Under the pieces are notes generated by a model, which did not search any database, was not told the origin of the DNA, and worked only from the letters and a program-made list of their open reading frames with translations. 64,000 nt of DNA from Hydrolagus colliei (Eukaryota): the NCBI GenBank assembly GCA_035084275.1, contig CM068755.1:12338001-12402000 (forward strand). Reading direction: 5' to 3'. Below, one piece after another: positions 15,428 through 57,483 of the stretch. Numbering within the stretch: position 1 is the first letter of the stretch; every line of letters begins with the position of its first letter. Made by a program: the position numbers and the translations under genes.

Positions 15428-16442
15428 ACTGTCAAAATGTAATGGTTAGCGGGGACCTGTGCAGCTGGGCGTTTTAATTAATCCTAGCAATGAAATTATA
15501 AGAGTTGTATTGCTTGCTAAATCCACAGTCAAGAAAGCAGGTTTACAGGATTTTTGCACAGATATGAATTTGTATTGTACAAGAATAACAGAAAAGTGTG
15601 TCACTGCTGCTGCATAGAAGTCTGGGGTCAGCTCCCTGTCACCTCACCATGTGTGCATTTCGTGCTCAGCGTTTTGTCAGCTCAAACTGGCAAACATTGA
15701 GTTTTGCCCAAAAAAATATTTGGAGCTATTACAGAGCATGAATTATAAATGTGCAGGGAAATGGAAGGGTGCAATGGGCCCACTTATGACACAAAAAAGG
15801 TATAAAATAATATTCAACAATGCAGTGAATGCCTTTATTCCATTTCTCTTTTATGGGAGCATCTGTTTGCTAACATTTCGGCCTGCTGCCATGTAAATAA
15901 TCACTAAATTAGTGAATGCATGTACAATTTCAGCTCGAGTATTATTACTGTCAAGTCAAACAATAAAGCCAGAGAGTGCTGAGGCTCTGTCGACTTATTC
16001 AAATGGGCAGTGTACAAAAAGAAGATTGAATCTCCAGCTTTTAAATGAGAATAAAGTTTACATTTTCATCGCTCAAGGACAAGAGGGGCATAAAACAATC
16101 CAATTTTAATTTAAATGGTTATCCATTTACAAAGAGGAAAGGTTAGTTTTTTGGAAAAAATCAGACTTAGTGGAATAAGCAATTACAAACTCTGGAATCA
16201 TTTCGACTTGTGTCTCATTGCTTTATTTGCAGATGACCCATTCATTTGAGAATGATGTGCTAGTTGTCACGTAACAAGCATTCTGTATTTTATTATTCCC
16301 AGGGCACAATGTTGTGGTCCTAACACCTATGTGATCAGTTGATTTTTTTAAAAATTGAATTAGCGATTTTTGGACACTAGTATTTCAATTGTTCACTAAT
16401 TTTCTCGGGGGGACGAATGCCAGCTTTTGATCAGTTTGACTA

Positions 16443-16946
16443 ATTTTTGCTGACACTGGCGGAGGCTGTTAGAATTGGCTAACCTTTGGATGTACATCGA
16501 CAATCTGAGGTTGCATTATGATTGATCATGTCGCCGTATTCGCCTGATAAAACCTAATCAGTGTTCAGAGCAATTTAAGTAATGAAAGCTCATTATCGGC
16601 ATTTGCCAAGTTTAAGAGTTTTTTTATGCTCTCCTACTCGTCAACCTTTAGGGACCTTATAGGATCAATCCTGTAGTATACAGAGCTTCACAGTGCCCCT
16701 GCAAACAGACAGAAAGATTTATTTTTGCTGACGTTGCTTAGACATGTATGCACCACCTAACCTTTCAATGTATATTGACAAGCTAAGGCTAGATTATGAT
16801 TGATCATGTTGGCCTCTTCATTACTTAAAACCTAATCAGTGTTCTGAGTAATTTGAGTAATGATAGCTCATTATCGGCATTTGCTGAACTTAAGAGTTTC
16901 TTTTCCTTTACTCCGTGCCAACCTTTAGAGACTCGCTAGGATCAAT
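16443..16946. repeat. Diverged direct duplication, period 278 bp (16443-16669 / 16721-16946)
   Basis: Hand alignment of 16479-16618 with 16757-16896 gives 113/140 identical with no gaps. ATTTTTGCTGAC lies upstream at the same offset and AGGATCAAT downstream at offset 277. Confidence 0.92.
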
Positions 16947-17170
16947 TTGAGAGAGAAGGTGGCCTTATGACATCCTACAAACCACACCCATCAATTAAAA
17001 ACATCCCTTGCTGACTGTTTTGTGGTTTGGACTGTGTGAAGTCACAGTTAACAAGAGCGCAAAGAATACATTGGCCTTTGCTTCAGGTATGTTTCTTAAG
17101 GCTAATAACTTGAACTCCAGTTCCATAGGAAGCTCTCCCACCCAGCACCGCAACACAACAAACAAATGCT

Positions 17171-20080: not shown

Positions 20081-20535
20081 TCCGATAAGCAAATAATCGC
20101 TTATCACTGGTGATGACTAGGCAGCGACTGACTTAAGGGACCTTAAGATCAATTCCATGTCAACAGTTTACAATTTCACCTGTTTAGCTTTCAATTCTCC
20201 CTGCATGCCACATAATATAAAATTGGCTGACCCTCTAAGGCAAAGATTGGCCTCGTGTTTCATAGTACGCAATAATGGTTCCATGCGCTGATCAATAAAA
20301 CCGTTGTGAACTAAATGAATATGTTAAAATAATGAATACAGACAATTATACTTCTGCCATCTCCTGATAGCAGTCTTGTAGTAAAGAAAAGTGCTAAAAA
20401 GTTCGCAAGGCAAATGAAGGAAAACTAAAGCAAACCTGTCTCTATAGATGATATCTTTAATGTCTGAACATTGGATATCAAAAGCTCTGTATTTAGGTTC
20501 CAAAGATCTCTAGGTTTCTAATATATCTTCTCCCA

Positions 20536-21693
20536 GCATTGTTCTTCATGGACCTGCTCTCACCTGGTTTGAGTCTTACCTTTCTTACCGTCTCCATATT
20601 GTCACCGCTAATGGCTTCTCCTCCAGCCCCCACTGTGTTACCTGTGGCATTGTTACCTGTGGCATCCCCCAGGGCTCTGTCCTTGGTTCCCTGCTTTTCA
20701 GTATTTACATGCCACAAAATCAAAATATTGGTGACATCATCCGCAGACATGGGGGCAACTTCCACATGTATGCGGATGACACCCGACTCTATCTTTCTGC
20801 CTCTACCCTTGACTTCAGGACCACTGCTGTCCTGACAGGCTGCCTGTCAGACATCAAGTCCTGGATGAGAGCTAGCTTTCTACAGTTGAATGACAACAAG
20901 ACCGAGGCCTTCCTGATTGGCTAACTCCAATGTTATCACACATCAGGCACTGATTACATCAATCTCTATGGTTGCACACTCAACCTCACCAAGACAGTCA
21001 GGAACCTAGTTGTCTTGTTTGATCCTCAACTGTCTTTTCTCACCCACATCCAAGCCATGACCCACTCTGTCTTCCCTCAATATTGCTCGACCACCACTAC
21101 CTCAACCCTCATGCCGCTGAAACCCTCATTCATTCCTTCATCACATTCAGGCTTGACTATGTCAATGCCCAACTTGCTAACTTTCTCAATTCCTCCCTCC
21201 ACAGGCTGCAAATAATCCAGAATTCTGTGACCGCTTTACTGCTCCAAGCTCCCCCATTCTTACCCGACTCCATTGGATCGCCATTATCCAGAGGAATCAA
21301 TTAAAGATCCTGGTCCTCACATTCAAAGCCCTCTGTGGCCTTGCCCCACCCTACCTCTGCAATCTCCTAACCTTCTACCAACCTGCCCACCCTCTCAGTT
21401 CACCAGGCCCCAGCCTGCTCCATGTCCCCAGATCCACCCGCCCCACTATTGGCACACGAGCCTCCAGCAACCCTGCCCCTAACCTCTGGAATTTCATACT
21501 GCAGTCCCTCCGCCTCACCACTCCCTAGCCTCCTTCAAGTCCCAGCTCAAGACTCTCCATTTTGACGGCCCCATTGGATCCCCCCTAATAACCCCACTTC
21601 CCTCCACCCTCTCCATTCCCAACCAGCGCCTTGTGACGTCCTCCTGATGTGAAAGGTGCTATACAAGTGTAATTTTGTTGTTGTTATTGTTGT
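20536..21693 (+). mobile_element. L2 (CR1/L2 group) LINE, 5'-truncated, ORF2 reverse transcriptase pseudogene
   Basis: Translates as ALTWFESYLSYR...GIPQGSVLGSLLFSIYM...FHMYADDTRLYLS...IKSWM...FLQLNDNKTEAFLIG, later ETLIHSFITFRLDYVN and RLQIIQN. Contains stops and frameshifts, an in-frame 15-bp duplication (20636-20665), and ends in the stem-loop tail plus (TTG)n. Confidence 0.97.
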
Positions 21694-38889: not shown

Positions 38890-39365
38890 AAACAACAACA
38901 GCTTGCATTCATATAGGATCTGTCATGCCTGATGGCATCTCAGAGCTCTGTATTTAGCAGGGTTGGACGAAGGGTCTGGCGATATATCAATATATCGGTT
39001 ATATCGATATAATTTTCATATCGATATGCCGATATCGGAATTTAAAATATATCGATATATCAAAAAATTTGATATGAAAAAAAATCAATATATCGCACAT
39101 ATCGGTATATCGTGTCCAGCGATATATATCTGTATGATGCGGACTTTTTCAACTTGCGCATCCCCGAATACGTGCACACGTCTGAATGCACATGCACCTC
39201 TGAATGCGCGTGCACCTCCTAATGCGCGCACATGTGCAGGACAAAAAAACCTGCGATATCGATATATCGGTATATGTCGATATGGGCAAATCGATATAGG
39301 AAAATTTCGATATCGACGAACCCTAGTTGGACGACAAGCAAGAGAGAAGGAGGAGGGGAAAGGGC
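38890..39365 (-). mobile_element. Decayed L2 3' end split by the hAT MITE
   Basis: AACAACAACAGCTTGCATTCATATAG...GGCATCTCAGAGCTCT lies left of the MITE and a purine-rich UTR complement lies right of it. Confidence 0.55.
38970..39325. mobile_element. Non-autonomous hAT-superfamily DNA transposon (MITE), 356 bp
   Basis: Imperfect TIRs AAGGGTCTGGCGATAT and ATATCGACGAACCCTA; perfect flanking direct repeat GTTGGACG (38962-38969, 39326-39333); many CGATAT/ATATCG subterminal motifs; CpG-rich. Confidence 0.9.
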
Positions 39366-42121: not shown

Positions 42122-44105
42122 ATATGATGTAATACATCTATGGGTGTTTAGATGTTGCTAATTGCAATTTATGATTTGCACCTTTAACAGCACATCTTAG
42201 TCACATTTGCACTAAAAACGAAAAACAATCATGATCAGAAATGGGATCAGAAATGGCATCAAAAACTATTTTTCAATTGTCACTTTATGTTCCGTCCTGA
42301 AATTGCCCTGTGTAACCTGAAGTCTCTTGTTCTGCTGCCTTGATGCATCAAAAACTATTGATATCAGTTTTCTTTCTCAATTCTATTTAAAATCTTGTAT
42401 TGACAATAAAACAATTGGCCCTAGAACAAGCATAGTATAAGTCCCTACAAGAATCATTGAATTTTGTAGGGAAGGGATTCAAATGTGAAAATTTTCACCT
42501 AGTAGATTGTGATAGTTTGCATTTTATTTGATTCACTTTGTGGACTGTGTTGTATTTTGATTCTTTCACCACCTGGCTGTTCCAAGGTCACTTAGTGAAC
42601 TCGCAAAATGGCCGTACTGCGATACACATATGAGCTATATATAAATATAGGTTTTACACTATTTGCTCCCTTAGCTGTGTTTCTTTAAAAAAAAGCATAA
42701 ATTATTTCTGATCAACGAACACGAATCCACCGTCGAACAGCCACTCAATGGAGAAGGCAGGGAGAAGCAATGAAGCACGGTAATGAGTAATCTTATTACT
42801 CAATGGTCTGTGGTCTGTACTGGCCTCTCAAATGCTAGAAGTGTCAGGGAGATAAATAGCAGAATGTCCCATTGAAAAATATGATTAATACCTGCCTCTG
42901 AAGATGTAGTGGAACCAGCTGGCTCGGACAGCAGTTGCATGCTGGGAAGATCCATCGGATTGCAATGGACCAGAGAGGGCAGTGCCTGGGAAAGACAAAT
43001 CATTGCAAGTGGGAGTGCAGGGTACAGTGGAACAGACAGAAGAGGTAGAGACATCCTTTGACTTCGTCAAATTATTTGCTCAGTATAAAATTAAATGATC
43101 CAAATTAGGAAAGCGAACAGTTTGAAACAGTCAAAGCTCACTTGAGTACAGGATAAATACATGAAGTATTACCTTGCCTTTCAAAGTGTAAACATGTCGA
43201 GAGGTAGGGTAGTTATTCATAGTGGAGGGTTTGGCCTCCTTTACAATGAACTTTTTTTTCCCCGCTAATGAAATGATTGATAAGATGGAAGTAGGTGCTT
43301 TAAGATGGAATTAATCATTCTGCATGGTAATTTATTCATGTGTTTCATCATCCACAGAGTGTGATGATCACCTTCCAACAAAGCAGAGGGTAAGTTCAAT
43401 GTTCACCACTGATAATATTGTGAACTTGATATCTTTTTGAGTGTTTTTTGAGAAGGATGTTTTTTGCAGACAATGCAAAACCAGAAAAACACAGAGCTGC
43501 TGCATCACATTACTGTAATCTAGGCACCACTTATCAAGCTGTTAGTTAAGAGGCAATCCTGCAATGGATGAACTGAATTAGTTTCACTACAGAACTTCTG
43601 ACCAATTCATGGGACACAGTCCAACTCCTTACCAAACCCCCCCCCCCAGAAAACAAAACTATCAAGGAGTTATCATTGATATATTTATATATGTATATAC
43701 ACACACCTGTTTGAACTTTACATAAAACAGACACTGGAGAGTCTATGTTTCTGTGTTTGTGGAACTCACAATCTGCCTTAAGCTTGGTACAACCTGTTAG
43801 CTCATTGCTTGGCTAGAATGTATTTTCAACTTCTAAGATTTCCGAATTTTGAGAAAATCCGGTTTAGTTCCACTCACTTTCAATGTAAATGGGAACAACA
43901 GTTTTCTCGCCAAATCAAAGATGGAAACCAGCTGCTTGTGCAATCTGGAATGGTCAGACAGAAGCACACCCATATTGCAGGGAAATGTACCTTTGGCGCT
44001 AATCTTACTAAGAGCAGGCATTGCATTGAAACAAAAAGTTCTGCTCTGGAACATGATAATATTTGGCTTTTTAAAAAAATAGGAACATAGGAAGAAACTT
44101 CCTTT

Positions 44106-55257: not shown

Positions 55258-55313
55258 AACTTTTTCATTGCGGGATCTAATCTGAATTCTGTGGAGGCAT
55301 AGGTGCAGGTCAG
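55258..55313. repeat. 56-bp segment with a perfect inverted copy at 57312-57367
   Basis: AACTTTTTCATTGCGGGATCTAATCTGAATTCTGTGGAGGCATAGGTGCAGGTCAG is the exact reverse complement of 57312-57367. Confidence 0.95.
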
Positions 55314-57327
55314 CAGCTGCCATGAGCTCCTCTTACATTTATCCAACAATGCAAACTGAACTACAACCTCAGAGAAATATCCATTTAAACCATGCAGGGC
55401 TTGTGGGGGAATGGGAGGGGGGAGTGGAGTGGAGAGACTTTCTGAAATGGATCCAGGATCATTTTTACATCATAATTATTCATTCTAGCCATTAACGATG
55501 AGTATTTTGCCCGTCCCTTTATTTCAAAGATTGATCTTTGACTTAATTATTGGTAATAAGCCAATTTCCCTCCTCGGGCATTAGATGATTTAGTCACCCG
55601 TAATGGATAGCACTCAGGGTAAATAAAACATTGTTCCGAACTACGCATTTGTTTCATTCTGAATGAAATGATTTTAAATGAAACGGATAACATAAGCATT
55701 AGAAACAGAATGCTGAACGACAGGCTGTGGGATACATTCAACCTTTTATTTTTATAGAACATATGGATCCAAACTCACTAACAGGATAAACAAGAGGCAA
55801 AGCTAATGCGGCACCTTGCATTTCGATATCCTCTGTTTGTAGTGGACTTGCTGAATTGTGAGAACTCAGGACAACACACACATCAAAGCGTATATTTTCT
55901 AGTCACAGAGCAACATTTTTCATGCCCAGTTCCCTGCCTTGTAATACTGCCTCACTGCAGTCTAATCAAGCTGCATTCATTACTTTGAATCCAACACCGT
56001 TTATTTTCAAAGAATAAATTTTGCATAATAATCTTCCACCATTTATGATTTAAACCTGCATTAGTAACTGACCACAGTTCTGACCAGATCTACCTAACAG
56101 GATAAAATGACCAATTTTTATCTTTGAAATTTTCCAGAATGGAAGATGGAAACCTGTTTTGCATTCTGATTAATGTGAGCCAGCAGGTATTTGGGGAATG
56201 ACTGATGCAGGCAGCCTGACACGGTGAAAATTATTTCAAAGTTTTTTTTTGTTCTCCCGTCTTTTGAGTCAAAGATATTTCATTGCCACTTAAATTTGAC
56301 CTGGCCTATATCTATCCATTTTCCAGCCAACTGTCATCTAAGCATTCATTTCATAGGAGTGAGGGGTGAGGGGAGGAGGAGAAAAATAGTGTAACTTAAT
56401 AGTTCACTGGAGATTTATTTACCATTGACCGTTGACTGTGAACTTCCTCTTCTCACATATGTGCAGTGTCAGGTAGGGTCAAGGTGCATGTGCCAAAAAG
56501 AAGGGTAAAGCTGTAGCTGAGTACATTGAAACAAGACGCTCAAGGGTAAATTTATGGTTATGCGATCTGAGCCTGGAGGGACCCTTGCTCTAATGCTCTG
56601 TGACCATGAAAACACACTCGCTGATAATGGCTCCTAATGGCACTGCAATGTGACTGCAGTAGGCAGGTGGAGCAGGCACTCTGATGGGAGGGTAGAAACG
56701 GGGGAGGGGTAGGTCATGCTCAAGATGATAGTCTTTCTCTCCTAATTATTGTCTTTTTAGTTGCTCGGTACTGAGTGCCTAGTATTTCATAGGCGATCAG
56801 AAGTAAGCTTTGGGCATGGATCAAATAGCAGGAGCTCTGCTTTTGTTCAGCGAGTTAACTTTAGGTGTCATTTGAGCTTTGCAAACATGCTAATCTGCCA
56901 TTGCTACAGAACAGTGGTATTTTATCAAATTTAGCTATAAGTCATAAAAGGAGAAATGTCACTCCTGTTTATAGAATTTAATACGTGAATATCTGACATG
57001 GATCTTGTGCATATTCTGTTGCTGCACATTGGTAAAGATATTCTTGAAAACATAAGCAACATTATTTAATTAAGGTCGGAAACCAATAAATTGAGACATC
57101 TAAATTATTCCTCAACCTTAGCAGACTTGGATACATTCAGCCATGGTCTAAATGGTTAAATATTTGATCCATTCTTAGAGAGCTTTGCCAGAGGATATGT
57201 AGAAGATTTCATTAGCATATGACAGGTAAAGGGAAATAAGGGAGCAGAAGTGAAGGAATCCACATGAGACCTTATCGACAGCAAGTGATCTACAACCTTA
57301 GACTGTGCCTCCTGACCTGCACCTATG

Positions 57328-57441
57328 CCTCCACAGAATTCAGATTAGATCCCGCAATGAAAAAGTTGGAATGCCTTGGGACATCCTCCACAGAATTCAG
57401 ATTAGATCCCGCAATGAAAAAATTGGAATGCCTTGGGACAT
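57328..57441. repeat. 57-bp tandem duplication (2 copies, 1 mismatch) bounded by CCTCC microhomology
   Basis: Units 57328-57384 and 57385-57441; CCTCC recurs at 57442. Confidence 0.95.
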
Positions 57442-57483
57442 CCTCCCGACGTGAAAGGCACTACACAAATGTTGTTGTTGTTG
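57430..57483 (+). mobile_element. Isolated L2 3' tail
   Basis: GCCTTGGGACATCCTCCCGACGTGAAAGGCACTACACAAATGTTGTTGTTG. Confidence 0.88.

Follow-up and report, generated by a model that had tools for sequence, protein, structure and literature searches.

A probable tandem pair of anciently conserved enhancer modules in the inferred NR2F2 regulatory block of Hydrolagus colliei

Introduction

What are the two similar non-coding sequences that lie 278 bp apart in the Hydrolagus colliei genome, and on which gene would they act? They stand in a 64-kb window (the window is the whole stretch of DNA analysed, 64,000 nucleotides), and a preliminary description had read them as an undescribed element selected for motif content and phasing, either enhanceosome-like or a pair of structured RNAs. 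The copies are most likely two diverged DNA enhancer modules with Maf-type, PBX-HOX and homeodomain sites, and we put the probability that they form a tandem pair of conserved enhancer modules acting on NR2F2, the inferred target, at about 0.75. A tandem pair held since the origin of jawed vertebrates would be a natural experiment on the sites and spacings that an enhancer requires and on the persistence of duplicate enhancers. It would also supply NR2F2, which has been linked to heart defects (PMC13348845, PMC11563408), with three candidate elements.

Results

Gapless alignment of the copies at an offset of 278 bp gave 113 identical bases of 140 (16479–16618), reproducing the count of the preliminary description, and 119 of 147 (16479–16625), with a chance probability of about 1e-42. 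The five blocks of 12, 9, 17, 19 and 20 nt that had been called unchanged were exact in both copies. The duplicated units were longer than the core first noted, about 230 bases each, with copy 1 at 16443–16669 and copy 2 at 16721–16946; past the core, the copies shared three extra blocks on the plus strand, TTAAGAGTTT followed, across a gap of 1 nt, by CAACCTTTAG and TAGGATCAAT (16612–16669; copy 2, 16890–16946). Between the copies, 17 of 24 columns differed in the 24-nt spacer and 10 of 16 in the 16-nt spacer. A runs test for clustering of the differences, with boundaries picked post hoc on data already seen, gave strong support when the 24-nt spacer was included (p 1e-4) and modest support in the core alone (p 0.03–0.04).

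Stop codons closed all six frames across the core, in agreement with the earlier report of no open frame, and the coding-exon reading was rejected. Among 243 window frames of at least 56 aa, Pfam returned one match above the cut-off, a piece of LINE reverse transcriptase, and among 61 selected flank frames out of 1193 it returned none; Rfam gave nothing at gathering score for the copies (best E 0.7). Seed-limited searches of the 1.0-Gb genome with the pair and the core as queries (E up to 10) found two matches only, where the internal repeat of a multi-copy transposon, the alternative that the preliminary description had raised against itself, should have many dispersed copies. No third copy appeared when the window and about 1.2 Mb of contig C22, which carries the pair (11.96–12.80 and 12.80–13.20 Mb), were scanned with a profile.

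Each copy begins with a T-rich TGCTGAC block on the plus strand (16443–16454; copy 2, 16721–16732), identical in both and presumably of the large-Maf half-site type; TGCTGAC occurs 11 times in the window. The AAAGGTTAG block on the minus strand (16479–16487; copy 2, 16757–16765), also identical, resembles what we take to be a nuclear-receptor half-site, a speculative label. It is followed on the plus strand by TGATTGAT (16519–16526; copy 2, 16797–16804), which fits the PBX-HOX consensus, by a copy-2-specific spacer (16810–16825) with a third TCATTA at 16818–16823, in place of which the copy 1 counterpart (16532–16547) has GCCTGA, and by a 19-nt block around AATCAG (16548–16566; copy 2, 16826–16844). 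The palindrome TAATGA-N4-TCATTA (16580–16595; copy 2, 16858–16873) likely represents paired homeodomain sites. It was confirmed in both copies of this genome together with the CpG reported earlier; the CpG is absent from human and zebrafish copy 2. Our naming of Maf, nuclear-receptor and homeodomain sites is a prediction from the motifs. A 13-nt inverted match is present that would allow a template-switch origin of the copy 2 spacer; this origin is possible and unneeded, because the zebrafish version of the catalogued element CRCNE00008365 stands intermediate between the copies.

Part of the stretch was present in 20 sequencing runs from 11 studies, of which four were possible sources and five were aligned. 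In each of three distant organisms, F, G and H, a single contig carried the two copies in the same order, starting at 16428, and the flank at 16153–16427 was unaligned at 80% in all three. Organism G differed from copy 1 at 20 of 207 bases (copy-to-copy difference there, 25%) and from copy 2 at 6 of 120 (copy-to-copy difference there, 20%). The orthologs are thus closer than the paralogs, and the duplication is therefore older than the split from G. None of the 20 runs is on record as RNA; the contig of X20, RNA by our guess, was unspliced like those of the DNA runs, and that of X17 had a depth of 2. Just upstream, 15900–15967 and 16054–16152 are more conserved non-coding blocks, with 2–3 differences per 62–68 bases in F, G and H among the differences listed; two probes did not find the block at 15900–15967 in the CONDOR or VISTA files.

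In copy 1, the changes of organism G fell on 16 of the 58 columns that differ between the copies and on 10 (worst case 11) of the 169 shared columns (p 7e-5), and the enrichment in copy-different columns persisted without the 24-nt spacer (p 0.019). For these counts, 18 of 26 changes were listed, 4 more came from the alignment of F, G and H, and 9, all in the 24-nt spacer, were taken by visual reading of a loose end; the one change without a position was scored as if it opposed the hypothesis. There was no such pattern in copy 2, where G had changes in 0 of 14 copy-different and 3 of 46 shared columns and human in 3 of 16 and 9 of 74. The common blocks do not predict constraint in copy 2, and constraint on its "spacer" equals that on the blocks; this spacer, TTCATTACTT, is maintained in organism G, human and zebrafish. 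The earlier notion of scrambled spacers kept for length held for their divergence between the copies, and failed for the 16-nt spacer, which is conserved within each copy.

Elements of the enhanceosome type have fixed spacing. The motif order here is likewise fixed, and copy 2 aligns without gaps to human over 90 columns. Unlike enhanceosomes, the orthologs tolerate changes of length: among the differences listed, there is a 1-base insertion after 16528 in F and G and a loss of 6 bases near 16878–16885 in F and H, with the loose end of G similarly shortened, and the spacer between AAAGGTTA and TGCTGAC measures 24 nt in copy 1, 24 in copy 2, 25 in human and 26 in zebrafish, so phasing is loose between these two words. 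With changes of 1, 2 and 6 nt between sites, the strict phasing proposed earlier was abandoned.

Human and zebrafish sequences were taken from the supplements of Parker et al. 2011 (PMC3261376; the legend and nine text files were searched) and aligned by hand. Human CRCNE00008495 matched copy 2 at 78 of 90 gapless columns and copy 1 at 65 of 90; at 16 diagnostic columns, 13 followed copy 2 and none followed copy 1, and the zebrafish version matched copy 2 at about 75 of 89. CRCNE00008366 contained AAAGGTTA and TGTCAGC with the flanks of copy 1, and its zebrafish version agreed with copy 1 at 20 of 22 bases and with copy 2 at 17 of 22. CRCNE00008365 had the palindrome and CTGAT at an equal distance and was without the copy 2 spacer, its other columns being ambiguous; judged from the motif distance, the absent spacer and its adjacency to 8366, it corresponds to copy 1. 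By these alignments, copy 2 is the ortholog of CRCNE00008495 (about 16790–16906), and copy 1 corresponds to CRCNE00008366 (about 16444–16510) and CRCNE00008365 (about 16533–16606). The element can no longer be called undescribed, because its copies correspond to three CONDOR elements already catalogued.

The human and zebrafish orthology of each copy indicates that both copies predate the split of bony and cartilaginous fishes, and one ancestral module would have been duplicated before it. That split dates to about 450 million years ago. The words TGCTGAC, AAAGGTTA, TGATTGAT, CTGAT and TAATGA-N4-TCATTA (loop free) kept this order across copies and species, and copy 2 has the third TCATTA beyond this common set. 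TGCTGAC is present in copy 1 of organism G and in human and zebrafish 8366, which also retain AAAGGTTA. Among the differences listed for F, G and H, the AAAGGTTAG block had one change and the 19-nt AATCAG block none. In human 8495, human 8365 and zebrafish 8495 both palindrome arms are unchanged and the loops differ; zebrafish 8365 has a 1-nt change, its start being cut off. The minus-strand CTGAT occurs in both copies of human and of zebrafish, and TAATC is missing from some of them; because TAATC is altered in zebrafish copy 2 and human copy 1, it became a less likely Otx/Crx site.

As in CONDOR-type conserved non-coding elements (CNEs), the copies combine mammal–teleost conservation (human and zebrafish 8495, 8365 and 8366, aligned by hand), a non-coding sequence that is neither a known RNA nor a dispersed repeat (Rfam, frames and seed-limited genome search), and a location within a developmental gene's regulatory block (judged from MCTP2, a CpG-rich domain, an ARRDC gene and mapped NR2F2-region elements). 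Parker et al. 2011 (PMC3261376) listed the orthologs of the copies as three separate short elements. In this genome, unlike in the CONDOR entries, the whole 230-nt units still align to each other, and the three elements would therefore be one duplicated module. Their tandem-duplicate relation seems to be unremarked: we found no published description of the pair, which McEwen 2006 and the CONDOR duplication flags may mention.

Further CONDOR elements mapped to contig C22 as a collinear, reversed series: 8369 at 13.139, 8371 at 13.122, 8389 at 12.915, 8394 at 12.830, 8494 at 12.381, 8496 at 12.327 and 8499 at 12.316 Mb. A second reversed collinear series comprised 8361 (12.899 Mb) and 8364 (12.585 Mb), and each ID series runs towards the pair, at 12.354 Mb. 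Inside the window, 42843–42860 on the minus strand is an exact 18-nt match to CRCNE00008494, which we took as its ortholog; 8369 has one base change relative to this genome, so its exact pattern had no match, and no credible place was found on the contig for 8362, 8367, 8492 and 8497; 8500 likewise has no mapped position. A position of human 8365 and 8366 far from 8495, as the ID numbers might imply, was rejected, since 8361 and 8364 map as a second series leading to copy 1; the ID order, used without coordinates, suggests that the copies are adjacent in human as well, where by rough extrapolation they would lie several hundred kb 3' of NR2F2. Three further checks were negative: among 246 lamprey CNEs, none of the three elements was recognised with four probes and the ID range, which is weak evidence; among 1307 sequences of VISTA 2011, no match to probes of the human elements was seen (line-wrapped text can hide one); and no reporter test of 8495, 8365 or 8366 appeared in the VISTA 2011 file or the available Grice tables.

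The PBX-HOX consensus TGATNNAT is fitted by TGATTGAT, and the NR2F2 locus ranks with the richest in motifs of this kind (PMC4489388, PMC3261376). A conserved TGATNNAT, the mark of a Pbx-Hox CNE in Parker et al. 2011, was found in both copies here and in human and zebrafish copy 2; in copy 1 it is not inside the human–fugu conserved segments, TGATTGAT sitting between the two. Human copy 2 appears in the TGATNNAT and KR motif lists. The stricter TGATNNATKR is absent here and in zebrafish, and present in copy 2 of human and of organism G (16805 C>T). The PBX-HOX site of the preliminary description stands, with TGATTGAT conserved and human copy 2 listed as such a site. No MEIS/PREP motif CTGYCA occurs in 16340–17050, so the hindbrain syntax of Grice et al. 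2015 (PBX-HOX with a conserved CTGYCA within 100 bp) is lacking, and CRCNE00008495 is absent from their candidate table in the files searched. PBX-HOX elements without a MEIS site close by were mostly hindbrain-negative (PMC4489388), and nr2f2_8394 (human chr15) was hindbrain-positive in 60 of 90 embryos (PMC4489388, PMC3261376). The pair shares with the NR2F2 Pbx-Hox CNE enhancers nr2f2_8394 and NR2F2_27254 (PMC4489388, PMC3261376) the regulatory block and a conserved TGATNNAT, with TGATTGAT as in 8394. In contrast to these two, it is without CTGYCA and has the TGCTGAC block and the TAATGA-N4-TCATTA palindrome.

MCTP2 is the nearest identified gene, with exons at 12,136,598–12,246,793, an end 108 kb left of the pair and a first exon 72% identical to Callorhinchus MCTP2. 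To the right lie a 38-kb CpG-rich domain containing a 200-N run (C22 12.603–12.640 Mb, 250–285 kb from the pair) and an arrestin-domain (ARRDC) gene at 13.217 Mb. We take the human 15q26 gene order to be MCTP2-NR2F2-ARRDC4, the same as here; this contig also carries homeoboxes that we take to be ISL2-like and ONECUT-like. Coding exons of NR2F2 were not found in the assembly, and the target assignment therefore rests on synteny, by which we infer that the gene desert separating MCTP2 from the ARRDC gene is the NR2F2 regulatory block. MCTP2;NR2F2 is listed as a block of 57 ultraconserved elements (PMC3436827).

Comparison of C22 12.46–12.61 Mb with the MCTP1-NR2F1 interval on contig C1 gave five same-strand, collinear non-coding matches (best E 1e-43), one of which may be a repeat; three further listed matches were non-collinear or of low complexity. 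The paralogous matches at C1 43.927, 43.940, 43.969 and 44.135 Mb correspond to C22 12.465, 12.483, 12.535 and 12.614 Mb and reach 276 nt at 76%. These collinear matches, together with the mapping of nr2f2_8394 to the same desert (C22 12.830 Mb), back the identity of the NR2F2 block. The reversed order and strand of the CONDOR elements (C22 12.316–13.139 Mb) suggests an inversion, relative to human, of the whole NR2F2 desert that lies between MCTP2 and the ARRDC gene. The orientation in this genome, which matches the MCTP1-NR2F1-ARRDC block on C1, may be ancestral.

Duplicated CNEs in CONDOR are described as products of whole-genome duplication beside paralogous genes (PMC2020477). Such elements, NR2F1/NR2F2 pairs included, are likewise paralogous and conserved in jawed vertebrates (PMC2020477, PMC3595034, PMC11563408). 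The present copies, unlike them, lie 278 bp apart at one locus, and no counterpart of the module was found near NR2F1 in 560 kb on the MCTP1 side (C1 43.60–44.18 Mb; profile and BLAST, best profile E 5.3).

Discussion

The earlier interpretation survives as to old purifying selection on both copies, which is supported by conservation to F, G and H, human and zebrafish, and as to a non-coding element with a PBX-HOX-type site; novelty, spacers kept for length only, strict phasing and structured RNA did not survive. In the enhancer reading that we prefer, a single ancestral module would have been duplicated head to tail before bony and cartilaginous fishes separated, and the copies would have diverged and then each been held by selection, the copy-specific spacer included. 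The motifs present suggest that each unit would be bound by a large-Maf-type factor, a PBX-HOX dimer and paired homeodomain proteins, and that the bound units would reach the NR2F2 promoter, at a distance of about 280 kb. We tentatively name embryonic hindbrain or neural tissue as the most plausible site of activity.

A reading of the copies as two structured RNAs, or as RNA elements of an unannotated transcript, is quite improbable. Several small hairpins can be drawn, one in copy 2 (16818–16863) reaching z −3.1 in one of eight chosen windows, set around the hairpin itself, and the loop of the TAATGA/TCATTA stem varies freely. However, whole-copy folds were unremarkable (z-scores −0.15, −1.98, −0.62 and −0.79), Rfam was blank at gathering score, and 43 consensus pairs compared in two sequences had one two-sided change. 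Pairs of the first stem are broken by 16788 G>C in organism G and by 16511 T>C in F, G and H, and the human copy 2 hairpin, compared by hand, gains a G-U pair and a mismatch, uncompensated, with no equal hairpin in copy 1. The stem letters themselves are kept, beyond pairing, and known RNAs were filtered out of CONDOR (PMC2020477). Among the few sequences compared, covarying pairs and a stable fold in both copies, which a structured RNA should have, were not seen. A neutral old tandem duplication, or an internal repeat of a transposon relic, has a probability close to nil: the clustering of differences is marginal in the core (p 0.03–0.04) and the window is rich in SINE and LINE pieces, but the seed-limited search found only two genome copies, and each is conserved to human and zebrafish, with adjacent DNA unaligned even in F, G and H. 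Neutrality of the duplication is already refuted.

It is also unlikely that the pair is a silencer or acts on MCTP2, the ARRDC gene or a long non-coding gene and not on NR2F2. MCTP2 is closest, at 108 kb, for one enhancer of the human block contacts with MCTP2 as well as NR2F2 have been predicted (PMC13348845), and either sign of effect would fit these data. Against this, the reversed CONDOR series suggests that the desert was inverted together with NR2F2 relative to the flanking genes, and the paralogous desert around NR2F1 keeps non-coding matches.

Within the enhancer reading, the human–fugu segments show that different halves of each copy are retained in bony vertebrates, which hints at a division of sites; detection thresholds alone may explain it. 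It is conceivable, and on balance doubtful, that an enhancer was duplicated in place 450 million years ago and its ancestral sites were split between the copies. In that case, the half with the Maf-type and AAAGGTTA sites would persist in copy 1 of bony vertebrates and the PBX-HOX half in their copy 2, and cartilaginous fishes would keep both copies whole. If true, this would be subfunctionalisation inside one enhancer pair that belongs to the control region of a gene of congenital heart disease, and this genome would serve as a near-ancestral reference.

Several other features were observed. In the window, a LINE reverse transcriptase fragment lies at 20514–20921 and SINE/LINE tail copies are numerous and dispersed; a CpG-rich element at 38990–39325 is shared with C1 44,065,215–44,065,462 and is likely a small DNA transposon; and a tandem 57-mer has a 98% inverted copy about 2 kb away (55258–55316 versus 57309–57446). 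On C1, the NR2F1-like gene has first-exon frameshifts and a nearby 200-N run, probably assembly trouble, and one of the matches that connect the NR2F1 desert with that of NR2F2 may correspond to the 3'reg1 pair of PMC11563408. The NR2F1 interval also holds a local two-copy duplication of its own (L136:4555-4953; C1 43,724,555–43,724,953), which does not score with the profile of the pair and whose copies, 281 bp apart, share 118 nt at 82%.
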